A DNA stretch of 64,000 bases, taken from a virus (taxonomy: Duplodnaviria > Heunggongvirae > Uroviricota > Caudoviricetes). The translations under genes were made by a program, and so were the position numbers. The stretch lies in the IMG/VR virus record IMGVR_UViG_3300013936_000289, positions 280,064-344,063 of that record. One strand, given 5' to 3'. The notes below the pieces were generated by a model. The model had not been told where the DNA came from, searched no databases, and saw only the letters and a program-made list of their open reading frames with translations. Shown piece after piece: positions 9,531 to 48,832 of this stretch (its first letter is position 1; each line of letters begins with the position of its first letter).

Positions 9531-9589
9531 ATATCATTATTAGATAATATACGACATTAAAACTGTAAAGTATATTTCTAATAATTATT

Positions 9590-10456
9590 TTATAATTTAT
9601 ATAAATCTGTTTCTTTATGTTCTAGTATTAATTTAACATTATATCCTAATTTTATATATTCATTAAATTTATCTTTCATATTCTAAATATCTAATGTATA
9701 ATTAGATTTTACTTCAACTAATAAATTTTTATTTGAAATATAAAAATCTGGTATTGCGCATCTATATTTCTATTTAATAGAATCATAATATTTTATTCTC
9801 TTACATTCAACATCATAATCAATTTGTTTTGAATCTAAATATAATGCATAATCTAATTCATATGTACTTCGTAAATATACTTTTTTATTATTCCATGTAA
9901 TATGATAGCAATCTTTACCTAATGTATGTGTGGGTCCTTTTAATTTACCATGTAAATATGATACTGTTGTTGATTCACTAAAATGTCGTATAGGAAAATT
10001 ATATGATTTAAATAGATGTAATAAAGTTTCAGAATTATTTATATATTTTTTACAATTATATTTAATATAAATATCTTTTGGTGATAATTGATTAATTACA
10101 TATTCAGTATATAATAAATCTTTAACTTTATTATATTCATCAACAAATTTTTTTGTATATAATGTATTAATATTTAATCCAAATGGTATTAATTTATTAA
10201 ACCATTTTGATGACTAATGTTTTGATATTTCAGGGTTTTCATTATTTAACTATAATGTACCGCAAAAATATTTTTTAATTTTTATATCATTTTTTATATT
10301 ATAATACCTTTTTAATGACTCTGATATTTTTTCTTTTGTTTCGTTAGATATTTTCCTATGTTTATTTGTATATGCACATCTACAACTTCCACAACAAAAT
10401 CGTCCAGAACCATAAATAGGTTTAATATAATATTTCCCACAATTTTCGCAATTCAT
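9590..10456 (-). CDS. free-standing PD-(D/E)XK (TnsA-like) putative homing endonuclease, 288 aa (code 15)
   Basis: MNCENCGK..YGSGRFC Zn finger; LRSTYELDYA...AIPDFY...LVEVKS; joined across TAGs; follows interrupted tRNA-Phe. Confidence 0.75.
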
Positions 10457-10508
10457 AATAAAATTAATTTTATTTATTCGAACTGTATATATGATTTTTC
10501 AGTTAAAG

Positions 10509-10669
10509 TGGACCCTTGTGGAATCGAACCACAACCCCTGGATTGTCTCTATAATTAGAGTCGAACTAATAATTTTATATCCATAAAATATAATATATAG
10601 AGATTAATTTTATACAGTTTATTCTGTTAATTCAGTCCAATGTACAGGCACCAGCCATACGCAAGGTCC
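10509..10669 (-). tRNA. tRNA-Phe(GAA) interrupted by an 86-nt insert (10545-10630) in the anticodon loop
   Basis: GGACCTT/AGGGTCC acceptor; TTGGA-CTGAA|AA-TCCAG after removing insert; TGTGG-TTCGATT-CCACA T arm. Confidence 0.82.
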
Positions 10670-22969: not shown

Positions 22970-25900
22970 TTATGAATTTTGTAATGTATCTCTACGATTC
23001 AACGTAATTCTTTGGACAATGCGTTCCATTCCATGTGACATTATAACACTTATGTCCACTATTCCAAAATCTTCTGCTATGATGTCCGGTGTGTTGTTTG
23101 ACTCATCACATACGATTTCATAACTTTCAATCGCATTAGACAATTTCATAGTTTCGAGAATTGGAGTAAGCGCAGTAACAACTGAAGCACGAACTGCTGG
23201 AGTGTTATACAAGAAGTTATATTGCTTAAGAACATCCTCACATGCAATTTCAAGAGTATTAAGGTTCTCGCGAACATGTAACTTATTGAAATCACTCTTT
23301 GTTGTTTGATAACATGTTTGATTACCGTAGATAAGTATATTATTACCTTCCTGAATAATTGTATTAACTCCGAATGGTTCAAGATAATTTCTATCTGTAG
23401 TATCTGCATTAAACTCAATACCAGAAACATCAGAATTTCTAATGATACCGTTTCTATTAGCTGCAATTACATACGGATCACCTCCGTTGAACTTACGGAT
23501 AAGCACGTTACATACATCAGCTGCAGGTGGAACATTAATCTTTCTACCGTTTACATTATATACTAAGTGAGGCCAGAAAGCTGCTGCGAACTTAGAACCA
23601 TCATCTTCTGTAGGAAGTGTAAACATTGTAGTTGAATACATATCAGTATTACCACCTTGAGGAATATACTTAGTATCGAATGAAGGTTTTGTATAAACAC
23701 CCTAATCATAAGTATCGCAGAAACATGGATCTATAGAAAGTTCAAACTGTCTCTTAGATGGAAGATTAAGCAATGCGGTTGTCTTCATACGATCTTTAGC
23801 GAGAATTGCAAGGTATTTCTTACCACCCATTTCATTTGATAAACCATATGACATTGAATCAACGATATAACGATAATCAACCATATTAGGATTACAAAGT
23901 CCTCTGTGAATTCCGTCGTCCTCGAGCATTGAATAAATCTTCTCAATACCTCCTTCAATATCAAGTTTACCATATTCATCAAAACCTGGACGGTGCTTAG
24001 CAGAAATATGTAAACCTTTAAGTGGAATAAACTTTAAGTTATGTGAAATCACATCATTTGTAATAGCTTTCTAGCGAATAACATAATTAGTCTTACTAAT
24101 ATAAACAGGGTCTAATGTAGTGAACAAATAGAAACCGCGTTTACCAGATTTTGTTTCAATTAAATTACCGTCACTAGTTTTACTAACATTAATATGATAT
24201 TTAGTACCTTTATAATTAAATTCATTTCGAGCATCAACGTTAATAAATACTTTTGTAATAACTCTTGTAATACCTGGAATCAAATTATATTTTTCTGCTT
24301 CACCTTGATTATTATAGAATGAAATGTTATTAACGTAATCACCAACTGAAATATTACTTGCTTCATTATCATCCGTAATGATAAATGAATTTAAATTAGT
24401 ATCTGTTACAGGAACTGCATCATTATCATATAAATCATTATAAACCAAATTAATTTTTTCAGAAGTTTCAGAATTATTTGTATAACCATTGAAATAACAT
24501 GCATGATATACATTAGAAACAACTTCATTAATATGTTCTGTTATATAATTATATGATAAGAAGTTTACACCGAAATATGTAGGAGTATCAGATTTAACAA
24601 GTTTATACATGAGATTCTTATTATTGAATAATGTATCCACTTGCTCCAAACCTCTAATGAAGTAATCATTACCACCATAACTGAAAGTATATCCTCCTGC
24701 TGTTGCATTTGTAAATGAATCTGTTTTATGATCTTTAAAATTAGTAATTGAAACTTTTTCTAATTTATTTCCTTGTGTACTTGTTGTTATTGTATCAATA
24801 TCTCTGATAACTGCATAAGCATTAGCTTTATTACCGCCAATTACAGCAAATAATTGTACTGATTCATTTTCAACAGAAGGAATTGCATATGTACCATAAT
24901 ACAAAGTTTTATCTTCATATACGTAAATATCATTTGTATCTTTTACGACTGGTACTTCCTTAATAAATAATGATTTATCATCTGTTGATATAACATCAGA
25001 AACAATAGCTTGATTTGTTGTAAATTTCTTTCCTGTTGAATCTAACTTATAAACTTTATCTTTTATATTATATGAAACATTTAAATTTGGTTGCGCATAA
25101 ACAAACTTTTCTTTTATTAAATTTGTTAATGTATCACCAGTGGATGTTTTAAACTTATTTATACTATTTTCGTCTAATATAATATAAAAGTTCGCTCCAT
25201 ATCTGCTATTTTTTGCTTTAACTGGCTAATTAGTTTTTGTATTATAAATGGCAAATGCCTTCATTGGTTTATCATTGTTTGCATATAAAACTCTAACTAA
25301 TGCTGATGGTACTACATCATCTGTTAAATTTGCAGTTTCTCTACCATTAAATGATAAGCACCATGCTTTCTGACTATTAAACGTAGGGTCTTTAATGTCT
25401 GGATCAAATGCTTGTGTCTTTTGGAAATAATATGAAGGTACAACTATACCTGCATTTTCTATATCTGAAGCACTCATATCGCTTTGCGGATGTGCAAGAT
25501 TCAAATAATAATTATCTGAATAAATACCTGTCTGAAGATTATGTCCAACCATATCAACAAGATACCCTGACTCGTTAATCTCACTTTCTCCAAGTTCTGA
25601 TTCTGCTTGTTTATTTCCATCGAAATCAAATACCCATGTACCTGTACCGTTTTCATTACCTGTCTCAACATCAACGCCATTCTTATCATATGAAATAACT
25701 TGAAGAGCATCTTCATTAACAGACATCAAAAGGCCAGTACGTTCTGTATTAGCATTTACCTTTGATTCAATATACATGTAATTACCTTGTTTATCAGTAA
25801 AATCAGGAATAATAGTACCTGTCCAAGAACCAATAAATGTTACGCCTTCTGCTGAACATAAAGATGAAACTTTTGATTTAATTACACCTGTTTTGTCAAA

Positions 25901-44519: not shown

Positions 44520-45180
44520 TAAATTATTTAGTTTCAATTAATTATAAACTTTTTTCAATTTTTATTAAAAATATTTCTTAAAAATGTAGACTTTTTCTTC
44601 AAAAGTAAGTAAAATAAATACTGGTATTTTGAGAATCTAAGATATTTAAGAAATTATATAAAGAAATTTAGTTTAAAATTAATTTTTATATTTATTTTTA
44701 ATATTTAGTAAGGTAAGTCATGGAAAATTGTAAAAATATTTTATTTTAATTAAATATTATTTAGAATTTGTATAAATTAATAAAAATTATATATTGATTA
44801 TCAATAAGTTATAAATTATTTTTAAAAATTATTAAAAATATTTAAACAAAAAGTAGACTTTTTTTGAAAAGTGAAGTATAATTAATATTAAGATATTAAG
44901 GTAATGATAGATATTTAAGAAATTAAATAAAGAAAATTAAATTTAGATTTGAAAAATTAATTTCTTTTTGGTTCTTTTTCTTTGCCTACTTTCTTTTTGA
45001 ACATAGATTTTTAGAGAGATAAATATTATAGGATCAATTTTTATTTAAGTTTAATTTATGATTTCTTTTTGAAAACTTTTTCTTTGACTCTTTCTTTTTA
45101 TTGATTGAAATTCTTTTTGAGAATAAAACTTTATTTTTATTAAATGATATAATATATAAAGTATTATTATAAACTTTTGA
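44520..45180. other. divergent AT-rich intergenic region with ~270-bp-spaced duplication; candidate replication origin/regulatory hub
   Basis: Gene-strand switch; GTAGACTTTT and AGATATTTAAGAAATTA each occur twice about 268 bp apart. Confidence 0.4.
44854..44882 (+). promoter_or_regulatory. sigma70-like phage promoter TA(G/A)ACT-N17-TATAAT; also 6624-6652 (-), 12434-12462 (-), 60680-60708 (+)
   Basis: Exact 17-bp spacing in all four counted copies. Confidence 0.7.
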
Positions 45181-45183
45181 TTT

Positions 45184-45714
45184 ATGGATAAAGAAAATGA
45201 AGTAGTAACAGAAAATAATAATTCTATAGATAATAATCAAGTTCAACAAACTAATCAGAATAATAATGTTAATTCACAACAAAATTCATTGGAAAATTCA
45301 TTGAGTAATCTTCAAGATAAGTGGACAGATATTATTAAGAATTTAAATGAACGAATGAAAGATTTGAAATCTATTGATGGTTTGATGAATGAAGTTTATT
45401 TAAAGAGACAAGAAGCAATAGACTTATTTTATGGAACAGCAAAGATATTACAAAAGCAAACGAGAGATTATAAGTCTAAAGCATCAGGAATTTATTTAGC
45501 TTTAAAATCAGGTTCATCTGGAATTAGATATACGAATGAAAGTGCTATTAATTTACAGATTGAATCTCAGTTATCAGCAGAAAAAGAATCAGTTGATTTA
45601 TTGGATAATTTCTGTAAATATATGAAAGATACCATCTCAACTATTGATAATATTATTTACGGTATAAACAATAAGATTAAAGTTTTTGAAATGATACATG
45701 GTTTAAAATTTTAA
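45184..45714 (+). CDS. UvsY-like recombination mediator (tentative)
   Basis: Helical C-terminus LLDNFCKYMKDTISTIDNIIYGINNKIKVF recalls UvsY. Confidence 0.5.
   Translation: MDKENEVVTENNNSIDNNQVQQTNQNNNVNSQQNSLENSLSNLQDKWTDIIKNLNERMKDLKSIDGLMNEVYLKRQEAIDLFYGTAKILQKQTRDYKSKASGIYLALKSGSSGIRYTNESAINLQIESQLSAEKESVDLLDNFCKYMKDTISTIDNIIYGINNKIKVFEMIHGLKF
45661..45714 (+). repeat. 54-bp imperfect direct repeat, copy 1 (copy 2 at 47006-47059)
   Basis: 49/54 identical; all 5 differences are synonymous third positions; both encode GINNKIKVFEMIHGLKF*. Confidence 0.95.
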
Positions 45715-45722
45715 AAAATATT

Positions 45723-46856
45723 ATGTTAAAATATATTAAAATACGAATATATCCTGATAATGTTTAGAAAGAATTTATTTCTAAACAGTTAGGTTGTTGT
45801 AGACTTATATATAATAAATTATTGGATTATAAGAAGTCATAGTATGAGTAGAATAAACAAGTTGTATCATGGACACAATTAGGTAAATATTTGACTAATT
45901 TAAAAAAACAAGATGAATATACTTTTTTAAATGATGTATATGCTATGTGTTTATAGCAATCAATGTAGGATTTAATTAAAGCATATGATAATTTCTTTAA
46001 ATTACATAATGGTTATCCTAAATTCAAATCAAAGAAAGATATTAAGCAAAGTTGTAGATTTACAAGAACTATATTTAAATTTAAAAAGAAGAAAATTAAT
46101 GGTAATAGGATAACATTAATTAAATAGTTAAAGAATATATTATTTAAATGTTCTAAAAAAGATGAAATATATTTAAATCATAATCAAAATAAAATACATT
46201 CAATTACGCTTATTAAAACTTCTACAGAAAAATATTATTTGTTTATTTTAATATATTATAATATTATACAAAAAGAAAAATTAGATACCGTAATAGGTTT
46301 AGATTTAGGAATAAAAGATTTTATCGTTGATTCTAATGGAAATAGATATGAAAATAAACATTTCTATAGAAATCAAGAAAAGAAATTAAAGAAATTATAG
46401 AGGTTGTTAAGTAAGAAATAGAAAGGAAGTAATAATCGGAATAAAGTTAGAATTAAAATTGCAAAAGTTCATGAGAAAATAAAAAATTAGAGAAATACAT
46501 ATTTACATCAAATCACTTCAAAACTAGTTAATGAAAATCAAGTTATCTGTATTGAAGATTTAAATGTAAATGGAATGATGTCTAATCATAAACTTGCTAA
46601 ATCTATTCAAGAGTTATCTTTATTTGAATTTAGAAAATAGTTAGAATATAAATGTAGATGGTATGGAAAATAGCTGGTTATAATAAATAGATTCTATCCT
46701 TCATCTAAAACTTGCCATAATTGTAGACATATTTATAAAGATTTAAAATTAAGTTAGAGAGAATGGATATGTCCACATTGTGGTAAAGAGATTGATAGAG
46801 ATTATAATGCTTCATTAAATATTTTAGCAGAAGGATTAAAACAAATAAATTATTAA
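45723..46856 (+). CDS. tnpB: TnpB RNA-guided endonuclease (IS200/IS605 OrfB), 377 aa (code 15)
   Basis: [10 protein letters not shown] (RuvC-I D), IEDLNV (E), CHNC/CPHC Zn finger, DRDYNAS (D); 12 TAGs, several at conserved Gln positions. Confidence 0.92.
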
Positions 46857-47025
46857 AATATAATAGGTGTATATTTACCCGAATTTACGCTTGCGGAGAT
46901 ACCAACTATGGATGACTAAATCATTACTAATGATTATACTAAAAAGTAGAGTGTCTATGAAACAAGAAATAATTGTTTATATATTAGTATATAAACACAA
47001 ATATTGGCATAAATAATAAGATTAA
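46857..47025 (+). ncRNA. putative TnpB omega-RNA (scaffold to 47005 plus guide from 47006)
   Basis: Directly 3' of tnpB, locally GC-richer, terminal hairpin TGTTTATATA-TTAG-TATATAAACA, followed by the duplicated target sequence. Confidence 0.6.
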
Positions 47026-47059
47026 GGTTTTTGAAATGATACATGGTTTGAAGTTTTAA
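47006..47059 (+). repeat. 54-bp imperfect direct repeat, copy 2
   Basis: GGCATAAATAATAAGATTAAGGTTTTTGAAATGATACATGGTTTGAAGTTTTAA. Confidence 0.95.
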
Positions 47060-47083
47060 TGAAATTATATTAAATAGAAAAGT

Positions 47084-47132
47084 AAAGAGATTAATAAGCA
47101 ATAAACAAAACTTATTAATCTCTTTTTTATTT
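47084..47132 (+). terminator. Rho-independent terminator
   Basis: AAGAGATTAATAAG...CTTATTAATCTCTT followed by a T run. Confidence 0.7.
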
Positions 47133-47575
47133 TATGAAAATTATTATTTAATAAAATTCTCTCTGTATCACATTATTTTTAATTAAGACTAATAACTATA
47201 AGGTAAAGAGATTTTGACGCGATGCAGGAGAGATATTGTATCAAATTTCGAGTTTTATGTTTTATTAGTTATTATCACAATAATTTAACATTACATGCAT
47301 TACCATATTTTCCATAAGGATTTACTGAGCATGCTTTTTGCATAGCGGTGAAAAACTTAATATTTTCCTTAGGAATTAAGACTGGACAATTATCAACATA
47401 ATAACCACCATCCTAACCAATTTTACCTTTTATATTTTTATTTTTAACTGAAGACTTTTTAATAGTTTTCATATATTAATTAACCGGTTATTTTTATTAT
47501 TTATAAATGTAAACAATAACCTAATAATATAATATAATATTTGTTGTTATTTAAGATTTTAGTTTTAATTAATAT

Positions 47576-48832
47576 ATGGCAGAAAAAAAGAAAGATACAA
47601 ATAAAAAAGAAAATAAGTGTTCATTTTGTGGTAAGACGAAAGACCAAGTTGCATTACTTTTTAATGGTGAATATGGAAGTATTTGTAATGAATGTTGTGA
47701 CCAGATTTACAATATGAATTTGAGTATAGTAAATCATAATACACAGTTTTTACCACCAGATGATAATTTTCATAAGGATGATGTAAAAAAACCTACAGAG
47801 ATTAAAGAATTTTTGGATCAATATGTAATTGGTCAGGATAAAGCGAAACAAAGGTTAGCAGTTGCAGTTTATAATCATTATAAGAGAATTAAACAAAAAG
47901 GATTTGATGATGTAGAGATTGAGAAGAGTAACTGTATACTTTTGGGAGACACTGGTACTGGTAAAACACTTTTGGTTAAGTCTATTGCTAAAATGTTAGA
48001 TGTACCAATTAGTATAGTGGATTCTAATTCTATCACCGAAGCAGGATACGTTGGTGATGATGTTGAGACTGCAATCACAAGACTTCTCCAAGCATGTGAT
48101 TATGATGTTAAGAAAGCAGAACACGGAATAGTATTTCTTGATGAGATTGATAAGATTGCAAGGAAATCCGGAGGAAATCCATCTATAACAAGAGATGTTT
48201 CAGGTGAAGGCGTTCAACAAGCATTACTTAAAATAATTGAAGGTTCTGTTGTAAATGTTCCTCCAAAGGGAGGAAGAAAACACCCGGATGCTAAAATGGT
48301 AGAGGTTGATACAAAAAATATTTTATTTATTTGTGGTGGTGCTTTTGTTGGTTTGAATAAAATTATAGAGAGACGAGTTAATAAATCTACATTAGGATTT
48401 GTATCAAAGGATAAGAAATATTTTTCTGATAATAAAGAAAACATATTTAAATATGTAAATGCGGAAGATTTAAAGAATTATGGTTTGATTCCTGAATTAA
48501 TTGGTAGACTTCCTATTATTACATATCTTAATCCTTTAACTGAAGATGATTTGAAGAGAATTCTTACAGAACCGAAAAATGCTATTATTAAACAATTTAA
48601 GAAGTTGTTTAAATTAGATGGTATTGAACTTATAATAGATGATGAAGTTTATGATTATATAGTTAAGTTATCCATTAAGAATAAATTAGGCGCTAGGGGG
48701 TTAAGAGGAATAGTAGAGAATCTTATGGATGATGCAATGTATAATTTACCGGCGTCTAATGAAAAAGAATTTCATATAACTATAGAATATGCGAAAGAAA
48801 AATTAAAAGATTATGAAAATTCTTATGAATAA
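47576..48832 (+). CDS. clpX: ATP-dependent Clp protease ATPase ClpX
   Basis: CSFCGK..CNECC Zn domain, [36 protein letters not shown]. Confidence 0.97.

Follow-up and report, generated by a model that had tools for sequence, protein, structure and literature searches.

A TnpB/omega-RNA cassette with a spare gene end in Lak megaphages: a candidate RNA-guided homing element

The stretch analyzed here (the window) comprises 64,000 nucleotides (nt) of the IMG/VR virus record IMGVR_UViG_3300013936_000289 (positions 280,064 to 344,063; Caudoviricetes). Between positions 45184 and 47132, it contains a conserved phage gene, a tnpB gene with its putative omega-RNA, and a second copy of the last 54 nt of the conserved gene; together these could form a homing element that is guided by RNA. 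The 2.1-kb region of this locus shared 99.6 to 99.8% identity with the Prevotella phages Lak-B8, Lak-B4, and Lak-B7, and Lak-B8 aligned with the whole window at ∼99% identity. Many open reading frames (ORFs) in the window require TAG as a sense codon, and by sequence the window is part of a Lak-B Prevotella megaphage in which TAG is read as Gln. Comparisons were made with four complete Lak genomes (B8, B4, A1, and C1) and with Lak-B-like contigs carrying alleles of the locus, which were found via the protein collection; Logan/ENA contigs were also examined. The features of the locus are as follows.

45184 to 45714, + strand: conserved Lak phage gene (176 amino acids [aa], no in-frame TAG; from ORF and translation); its last 54 nt are the gene-proximal repeat.
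45657 to 45660, + strand: TTAC, candidate target-adjacent motif (TAM; TAC is a Tyr codon), directly 5′ of the gene-proximal repeat.
45661 to 45714, + strand: direct repeat 1 (DR1), the resident, translated copy (last 17 codons plus stop), ending TTA AAA TTT TAA; from alignment, with the end linked to the cassette.
45715 to 45722, + strand: spacer of 8 nt, AAAATATT, where sibling copies have a left end of ∼200 nt; from 45718 on, the sequence is homologous to theirs.
45723 to 46856, + strand: tnpB, 377 aa, 12 TAG codons read as Gln, RuvC D-E-D and zinc ribbon kept (ORF, Pfam, PHROG, and structure match).
46857 to 46973, + strand: conserved omega-RNA scaffold, or right-end body, CCGAATTTACGCTTGCGGAGATACCAACTATGGATGA ... 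CTAAAAAGTAGNGTGTCTATGAAACAAGAAA (family alignment and fold).
46974 to 46997, + strand: terminal right-end hairpin TGTTTATATA-TTAG-TATATAAACA; the outer GTTT...AAAC is kept and inner pairs covary among 10 family members.
46998 to 47005, + strand: right-end tail CAAATATT, identical in the orthologous cassette on contig L174; the tails of siblings are 6 to 10 nt.
47006 to 47059, + strand: direct repeat 2 (DR2), the displaced native gene end, untranslated, with its first ∼16 to 20 nt (GGCATAAATAATAAGATTAA) at the omega-RNA guide position (alignment and the empty allele E1, below).
47084 to 47132, + strand: native gene terminator hairpin AAAGAGATTAATAAG...CTTATTAATCTCTTT plus a T-run; the syntenic terminator follows each of the empty alleles.

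The conserved gene had 43 homologues, every one on Lak-like phage contigs. It had been labeled UvsY-like in an earlier, sequence-only reading of this DNA, and this label is best treated as a lead: a language-model neighbor cluster (Atlas) carries PF11056 UvsY on 21% of its members, but no sequence match was found in Pfam, PHROG, or PDB, including PF11056 and solved UvsY. The two copies of its end (45661 to 45714 and 47006 to 47059) form a direct repeat identical at 49 of 54 positions and in register with the stop codon. The five mismatches (positions 3, 9, 21, 45, and 48) give the resident/displaced codons GGT/GGC, AAC/AAT, AAA/AAG, TTA/TTG, and AAA/AAG, all differing at synonymous third positions (P of ∼1e−4 for five of five under random substitution and 2e−3 for transitions only). 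A repeat search and alignment therefore bore out the duplication behind the right end of the TnpB element as first described, and the ATTTAC 5′ of the gene copy is read directly in the sequence.

Behind the downstream copy lie the native terminator, a small minus-strand gene, and clpX, in the order found behind every unoccupied allele; the downstream copy is thus the displaced original gene end. The block inserted before it measures 1345 bp and consists of the spare gene end, the 8-nt spacer, tnpB, and the right end. Nothing apart from the AT-richness of the genome speaks for a chance repeat or an assembly artifact, the chance of which is negligible. Such an origin is already refuted by the 49/54 identity in register with the stop codon, by the orthologous structure with other letters in contigs L174/175, and by the occurrence of both copies, letter for letter, in at least 10 independent assemblies from different samples, which excludes an artifact of assembly.

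TnpB is the ancestor of Cas12, and its natural role in bacteria is the restoration of transposons after their excision by TnpA. The tnpB ORF of the window (45723 to 46856) is open only with TAG read as Gln and starts 8 nt past the upstream stop codon. Its product matched the Pfam families PF12323 (HTH_OrfB_IS605; 60.8 bits), PF01385 (OrfB_IS605; 90.6 bits), and PF07282 (Cas12f1-like_TNB; 88.5 bits), all above the curated cut-offs, as well as phrog_506 (E value, 4e−122), and aligned over its full length to ISDra2 TnpB (8exa/8bf8; E value, 1e−60). The DLG, EDLN, and DRD motifs and a CHNC...CPHC zinc motif are retained, as checked on one printed alignment, to the artificial intelligence-designed TnpB-like nuclease 9yyg and not to ISDra2 TnpB. 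On these grounds, the protein is as intact looking as had been claimed, with all three RuvC acidic residues.

Nine intact TnpB loci were identified in the four complete Lak genomes. Seven belong to one family, with 73 to 84% aa identity to the window copy, and the other two share ∼49% with it; orthologues at the same site as the window copy reached 96.6% aa identity in a tblastn run that counted TAG as a stop. Metagenomes contain more than 290 members of the family. The ratio of nonsynonymous to synonymous substitution rates (dN/dS) was 0.11 to 0.26 against the eight paralogues and 0.12 against the orthologous L174 copy (proportion of synonymous differences [pS], 0.40), values by which TnpB is under long-term purifying selection. 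Searches for Y1 TnpA (PF01797) gave no match in the four complete Lak genomes, with positive controls; they covered phage genomes only. The absence of tnpA near the locus, which had been remarked on from the window, therefore holds across these genomes.

The copies (c1, the window copy, and its siblings c2 onwards) differ at their left ends. A left end of 180 to 215 nt 5′ of the ATG (91 to 92% identity) is common to c3, c4, c6, and c7. It is missing from c1, where homology to the siblings begins 5 nt before the ATG, and likewise from c2 and c5. IS200/IS605 elements make no target-site duplication, and a complete one has a left end with a subterminal hairpin next to the TAM. The window copy has no such left end, and a 54-nt allelic repeat flanks it; this repeat was interpreted as the result of recombinational rescue, not as a transposase-made duplication. 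With neither TnpA nor a left end, any spread of the cassette must go by recombination, and to this extent the mode of spread first proposed for it is supported.

The right end could be placed by comparison among the copies. Within the scaffold, an inner hairpin (46919 to 46935) is variable, with compensatory changes among copies. The conserved region 3′ of the ORF measures 150 nt in all and includes two hairpins that covary among the 10 copies. Identity among the copies stops at ...GAAACAAGAAA-N5-GTT (46977). In the ∼20 to 30 nt beyond, 9 of 10 family members have a hairpin in the same register, then a tail of 6 to 10 nt, and then unrelated flank. The inner stem pairs vary on both sides (GTTTATATA/TATATAAAC in c1, GTTTTAAAT/ATTTAAAAC in c5, and GTTTTTAT/ATAAAAAC in c6), and in the orthologous cassette of L174 the loop differs but the stem ends and the tail are the same, with the displaced gene end of that genome next. 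Across the 1.1 Mb of Lak-B8 (both strands), the hairpin-plus-tail motif was found at two element copies only. A subterminal hairpin a few nucleotides from the tip is the usual right-end layout of IS200/IS605 elements (PMC13565253). From the covarying hairpin and tail, the L174 tail, and the restriction of the motif to element copies, the right boundary was placed at 47005 and the putative guide at 47006 onward. This is the guide position named in the sequence-only reading, and a contig from an RNA-sequencing (RNA-seq) library runs through it. A right end at 46977, with a guide starting 28 nt before the repeat, was considered and ruled out by the covarying hairpin and tail beyond it, by the L174 tail, and because the motif is not native; the 20-mer after 46977 had no meaningful target elsewhere. 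For the guide 20-mer GGCATAAATAATAAGATTAA, with GGCATAAATAATAAGA as the guide-matched target sequence, the near-matches in the four Lak genomes were alleles of the same gene only. As the displaced native end abuts the right end, the guide of the omega-RNA would be a natural allele of the gene in which the cassette sits.

The RNA-seq contig (run X6) covers 46877 to 47027 at 100% identity, which hints, weakly, at one transcript comprising the scaffold and ∼22 nt of the displaced gene end; in the same run, the rest of 2.4 kb had no match of ≥99%. Contigs of related omega-RNA scaffolds were also present in X6, all beginning at the scaffold position 46879 (aligned span, 46879 to 46969) and one at a depth of 66, suggesting that this gut sample is rich in omega-RNA transcripts of the family. 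Uncovered parts in runs X1, X6, and X7 and low-identity pieces from other organisms were regarded as uninformative. No Rfam family (scan at E values of ≤1) and no intron features were identified over 45000 to 47600, and the fold of the whole 170-nt omega-RNA was no more stable than those of shuffled sequences (z score, −1.2). A σ70 promoter scan gave fewer matches than shuffles, and a GC-requiring terminator scan gave none, missing even the native hairpin at 47084 to 47132; both are uninformative in AT-rich DNA.

The orthologous site is polymorphic among relatives, with three occupied types (the window type, L174/175, and L172), four Lak-B-like empty types (on L171, L176-180, and L185-187), and Lak-A-like empty alleles. 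A DNA-metagenome contig (run X2) that joins 45666 to 47012 is likewise empty. The alleles read as follows, with ^ at the insertion point.

E1 (empty; L176-178): 5′ TATAT^GGC ATC AAT, i.e., ...ATAT^GGCATCAATAATAAG, TATAT^GGCATCAAT; 3′ TTG AAG TTT TAA, tgaaattatatt.
E2 (empty; L185-187): 5′ TATAT^GGT ATC AAT; 3′ TTA AAG TTT TAA.
E3 (empty; L179/180): 5′ TTTAT^GGA ATT AAC; 3′ TTG AAG TTT TAA.
E4 (empty; L171): 5′ TATAT^GGT ATT AAC AAT AAG ATT AAA, TATAT^GGTATTAAC; 3′ CTT AAA TTT TAA.
Lak-A-like phages (all empty): TTTAT^GGA ATT AAT AAT AAG ATT AA(A/G)..., TTTAT^GGAATTAAT.
Window type (occupied): resident TTTAC^GGT ATA AAC, TTTAC^GGTATAAAC; guide GGC ATA AAT.
L174/175 (occupied; same TnpB type): resident TTTAT^GGT ATT AAT, TTTAT^GGTATTAAT; guide GGT ATT AAC.
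L172 (occupied; very different TnpB, contig ending inside tnpB): resident TTTAC^GGA ATT AAT AAC.

The displaced copy of the window differs from E1 at 4 of 54 positions, and the flank downstream is identical; this near-identity and the common flank identify the displaced copy as the native gene end. Its 54 nt have no indel and only states known from functional alleles. E1 differs from the window guide by one mismatch (position 6), and the L171 allele matches the L174 guide at 20 of 20 positions, so alleles that look susceptible to a natural guide do exist. In all three occupied types, the resident copy ends TTA AAA TTT TAA followed by AA(AA)TATT, and the displaced copies as well as the empty types E1 and E3 end TTG AAG TTT TAA. 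Because this terminus is common to the three occupied types, the cassette must carry at least the end of the resident copy along with it. The claim that the cassette supplies the 3′ end of the gene thus stands in part, on this cassette-linked terminus and on the native state of the displaced copy; the special recoding that formed the rest of the claim does not (see below).

At seed position 9, the resident copy and the guide differ in opposite directions in two lineages, C versus T in the window type and T versus C in L174, and the window type also differs at position 3. The two copies within one genome nevertheless have lineage-specific states in common (ATA at codon 2 in the window type and GGA at codon 14 in L174). 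This is suggestive of selection against a self-match at position 9, in two lineages only.

The cassettes and their surroundings have not followed one history. In most flanks, the window resembles empty L176 more closely than it does occupied L174, and the identity of L176 to the window falls toward the cassette from both sides (98.5, 95, and 91% up to the cassette and 92, 89, 90, and 98.5% beyond it). Toward L172, identity falls from 97 to 93 to 87%. L172 is a Logan contig (ERR2145019; 1188 nt, positions 670 to 1187) whose gene is 97% identical to that of the window and which is occupied at the same site, also without a left end. Its TnpB, by comparison, has a synonymous substitution rate (dS) of 1.4 and ∼68% aa identity and is no closer to c1 than any paralogue is. 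The L172 cassette could not be extended: its junction pattern was absent from viral contigs, and the protein collection held no near-identical full-length TnpB (best, 76%). The identity dips and the incongruence between gene and TnpB in L172 suggest that cassettes and gene ends have been exchanged among Lak-B strains by recombination around the site. The polymorphism of occupied and empty alleles is long-lived.

Among the copies, long flanking direct repeats were found at exactly those that have no left end: 54 nt with 5 mismatches at c1, 27 nt exact at c2, and 65 nt exact at c5. The left-end-bearing copies c3, c4, c6, and c7 have none. At c5 (Lak-B4, MK250023.1, ∼515264 to 516516; locus L028), which B4 carries and B8 lacks and in which a separate terminator precedes tnpB, the 65-nt repeat of the end of the upstream gene is accompanied by a further decayed remnant of that gene. 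Upstream of this site, Lak-B8 (∼515.6 to 518.4 kb) has ∼2.9 kb between common flanks, compared with ∼2.3 kb in Lak-B4, the extra ∼0.6 kb holding long minus-strand reading frames with TAG codons. At c2 (Lak-B8/B4, ∼218 to 219 kb; L019/L023), which has the 27-nt flanking repeat, the first 24 nt of the downstream gene are copied behind the right end. An orphan omega-RNA scaffold with right-end hairpin and tail, and with no tnpB, lies in Lak-B8 (MK250027.1, 186855 to 186987, minus strand) and Lak-B4 (186644 to 186776), directly after a gene stop codon and followed by a decayed, frameshifted duplicate of the last ∼40 nt of that gene. This could be a guide used in trans or a remnant of deletion.

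Lak-A1 carries copy c6; Lak-C1, with flanks of 99% identity, does not, and its empty allele is identical to the c6 flank. The insertion site reads ATTATTAC^AACAATG; the left end is intact, the native end is left behind the right end, and the insertion turned the last 9 residues of a small ORF into 1 residue (...YYNNEKNETRDLS to ...YYNNF). A 10-nt overlap, ATTATTACAA, is clean and the sole such case, and because of it the exact junction cannot be placed. By sequence, c6 is a recent insertion that displays the primary, un-rescued state. Short imperfect target duplications around c3, c7, and c9 were considered and set aside as ambiguous, since they are AT-rich and overlap the right-end hairpin. 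The “empty” site for c3 in Lak-B8 (∼231744 to 231790; L035, ∼2050 to 2100), gatGTTTAAAAATAATTAATTGTTAACAAATG, resembles the right-end hairpin of the family, suggesting either the footprint of a deletion or repeated use of the site. Next to it, the first codons of the following gene differ between B8 and B4 (L013) at two synonymous sites (TTA TAT versus TTG TAC) in flanks that are 99.3% identical, and in Lak-B4 the gene upstream of c3 extends for 7 more codons, following an imperfect repeat of the 15 nt before.

These observations can be joined in a model in which the cassette acts as a TnpA-independent, RNA-guided homing element, to which we assign a probability of about 0.5. A TnpB-only element of the IS200/IS605 family would have inserted at ...TTAC^GG..., cutting off the last 54 nt of the gene, and a second, allelic version of these 54 nt would later have taken the place of the ∼200-nt left end of the element. 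With this replacement the gene stays intact, and tnpB is cotranscribed 8 nt behind it. The most economical origin of the spare end would begin with a primary insertion like that of c6, which then lost its left end on recombining through microhomology with a wild-type allele. The native 3′ untranslated region after the stop codon (TGAAATTATATTA) and the region around the tnpB start of the siblings have ATTATATTA in common, which is a plausible crossover point for this loss. Alternatively, integration of a circle excised through two repeats could have given the same structure. In late infection, once TAG is translated as Gln, the omega-RNA would direct TnpB to cut coinfecting Lak genomes that carry a guide-matched, unoccupied allele and the TAM. 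Repair from the occupied genome could then copy the cassette in, with homology provided by the gene on the left and by the displaced end and terminator on the right, or the cut may simply put the rival genome out of action. Escape of the resident copy would be due to its seed mismatches (positions 3 and 9 here and position 9 in the sister lineage), to the TAM codon, or to both.

Several results weigh against this model. The GGT, AAC, and AAA states of the resident copy are present in the functional empty alleles E4 and E3, which makes them standing synonymous polymorphism and not a bespoke recoding. The special, cleavage-resistant recoding put forward in the sequence-only reading is accordingly given up: an empty allele with GGT/AAC, named there beforehand as a finding that would speak against it, exists as E4 (L171). 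Meers et al. (PMC10055086) report a tolerance of TnpB for mismatches to the guide and a heavy reliance on the TAM, and on this account two mismatches may not protect the resident copy. The TAM itself is in doubt. Empty alleles had been expected to read TTAC^GGCATAAAT; this sequence was not found in scans of viral or metagenome contigs or among the Logan/ENA contigs examined, and all of the at least 12 empty alleles have TAT at that codon. TAC occurs there in the window type and L172, and TAT occurs in occupied L174 and all empty alleles. TTAC stands at the apparent left-end junctions of siblings c6 and c7 and not at those of c3, c4, and L161-167, and the left-end junctions of nine copies yielded no single motif. 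As a TAM, TTAC therefore has c1, c6, and c7 in its favor and the remaining junctions, the empty alleles, and L174 against it. The X6 contig that hints at transcription through the guide is single, 151 nt long, and of ∼2 depth, and its library could contain DNA. Homing of the window cassette remains a plausible reading, in which TTAC is a candidate TAM and cleavage is a proposal.

Other results that count against homing are those expected of a passive relic, the main rival. Here, a host TnpA acting in trans would have inserted the element, illegitimate or microhomology recombination would have rescued the gene, and vertical inheritance would have followed, with TnpB having no role in spread and the cassette being shuffled by ordinary phage recombination and sometimes lost between its repeats. 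Between the window type and L174, the cassette (pS, 0.40) has diverged as much as the flanking genes (pS, 0.35 to 0.45), so that it is old and has codiverged with its flanks, with no recent sweep. The link between long repeats and left-end-less copies (c1, c2, and c5) is expected if left-end loss and gene restoration were one event, for which the shared ATTATATTA is again a plausible crossover. The displaced remnants have decayed at c5, with indels and with the guide region included, and at the orphan omega-RNA; at c5, therefore, the match of guide and target has not been maintained. Direct repeats make precise loss easy, recombination between them can also create empty alleles, and the footprint-like c3 site of Lak-B8 indicates that deletions happen. 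A relic does not explain, however, why a TnpB unable to transpose is intact and constrained in all nine genomic copies and in the L174 orthologue (dN/dS of 0.11 to 0.26, at a pS of 0.4 for the latter). Nor does it account for the displaced 54 nt having kept free of indels and of states foreign to functional alleles, for the difference at position 9 persisting in two lineages despite their shared lineage-specific states, or for a deeply divergent TnpB at the same site in a 97%-identical background. Overall, the relic explains why left-end loss and duplication go together and why the cassette has codiverged, but not the long purifying selection, and we consider it unlikely, though by no means negligible.

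The constraint on TnpB would also be expected of a domesticated weapon or regulator, which kills guide-matched rival Lak genomes without copying itself or binds the resident end or terminator to tune expression. The fixed position, the cotranscription 8 nt behind a conserved gene, the TAG-recoded (late-translated) ORF, and a guide near-cognate to the resident copy fit such a role, for which there are precedents: homing endonucleases can serve to kill competitors (reviewed in PMC13565253), and domesticated TnpB repressors are known (PMC10705468). The intact RuvC residues, however, set this TnpB apart from a dead repressor of the TldR type, the presence/absence polymorphism and the many empty genomes argue against a needed function, and similar cassettes lie at unrelated loci. 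We regard domestication as improbable.

Extended from this one site to the Lak family, the homing model would describe left-end-less, nontransposing TnpB/omega-RNA cassettes that spread by homing or by killing rivals, supply a replacement tail to the gene they enter, and use the displaced tail as guide, in an arms race with alleles made resistant by synonymous or TAM-codon changes. This wider version is held more tentatively, at somewhat below even odds. If true, RNA-guided nucleases would act as homing or competition elements between coinfecting phages, as an RNA-guided counterpart of the T4 Seg/Mob endonucleases, and the cassette would be a natural, TnpA-free viral one, kept functional over long divergence, whose guide is an allele of its own host gene. 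The system is directly testable, with defined guides, natural alleles that look susceptible or resistant, and a small protein amenable to expression once its TAG codons are exchanged for CAA.

Elsewhere in the window, ∼1 kb at 9585 to 10630 is replaced by ∼40 bp in Lak-B8 and Lak-B4 and is a further presence/absence polymorphism of a mobile element; the ORF within it (9590 to 10456, minus strand, 288 aa, 4 TAG codons read as Gln) had no match in Pfam. The ∼1.1 kb at 24399 to 25490 aligns to Lak-B8 and not to Lak-B4, which has another ∼1 kb there.

Elements that live at the end of a gene and replace what they displace are known from mitochondria. Free-standing homing-endonuclease ORFs near the 3′ end of atp6 and cox genes bring a functional 3′ end and leave the resident end as a downstream remnant. 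They are guided by protein (LAGLIDADG/GIY-YIG), often fused in frame, and organellar, unlike the viral Lak cassette.

Among phages, the closest likeness is to the intron-less homing of T4 SegF/SegB (PMC13565253), in which a nuclease gene is wedged between conserved phage genes and occurs in some close relatives but not in others, only a few substitutions in a conserved neighbor gene distinguish self from target alleles, and divergence rises toward the insert. Recognition there is by protein, whereas the Lak cassette would use a guide RNA from the displaced gene end and duplicates that end. RNA-guided homing by TnpB-omega-RNA of the IS200/IS605 elements ISDra2 and ISGst restores excised transposons (PMC10055086). 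The Lak TnpB is of the same family over its full length (E value, 1e−60 to 8exa), with RuvC D-E-D and zinc ribbon, and likewise has a conserved noncoding RNA region from the ORF to the right end and a guide made of the DNA abutting that end. Unlike ISDra2 and ISGst, the window copy has no left end and its phage has no TnpA, so “restorative” homing after excision cannot apply; it is also viral, uses TAG as Gln, and sits inside the coding tail of a gene with a 54-nt allelic duplication.

A TnpA-independent spread of IS605 elements in plasmid populations has been proposed as “transposon non-restorative homing” (PMC13565253), in which the vacant orthologous site on a co-resident replicon is cut by TnpB and then receives a copy of the element through recombination, the mode proposed here. 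That work dealt with complete insertion sequences on laboratory plasmids, in contrast to a natural, left-end-less megaphage cassette with a replacement gene end. IStrons, which combine TnpB with a group I intron (PMC10690162), also place a TnpB element inside a gene without killing it. They restore the gene by RNA splicing, whereas the Lak cassette does so at the DNA level with a spare 3′ end, another way to live inside a gene. Homing by TnpB is thus known and its TnpA-independent form already proposed; in the literature, no paper was found that links TnpB with Lak phages. What is new is a natural viral case, with left-end-less cassettes carrying a spare gene end at several loci, a TAG-recoded nuclease, and a natural set of alleles that match or mismatch the guide.

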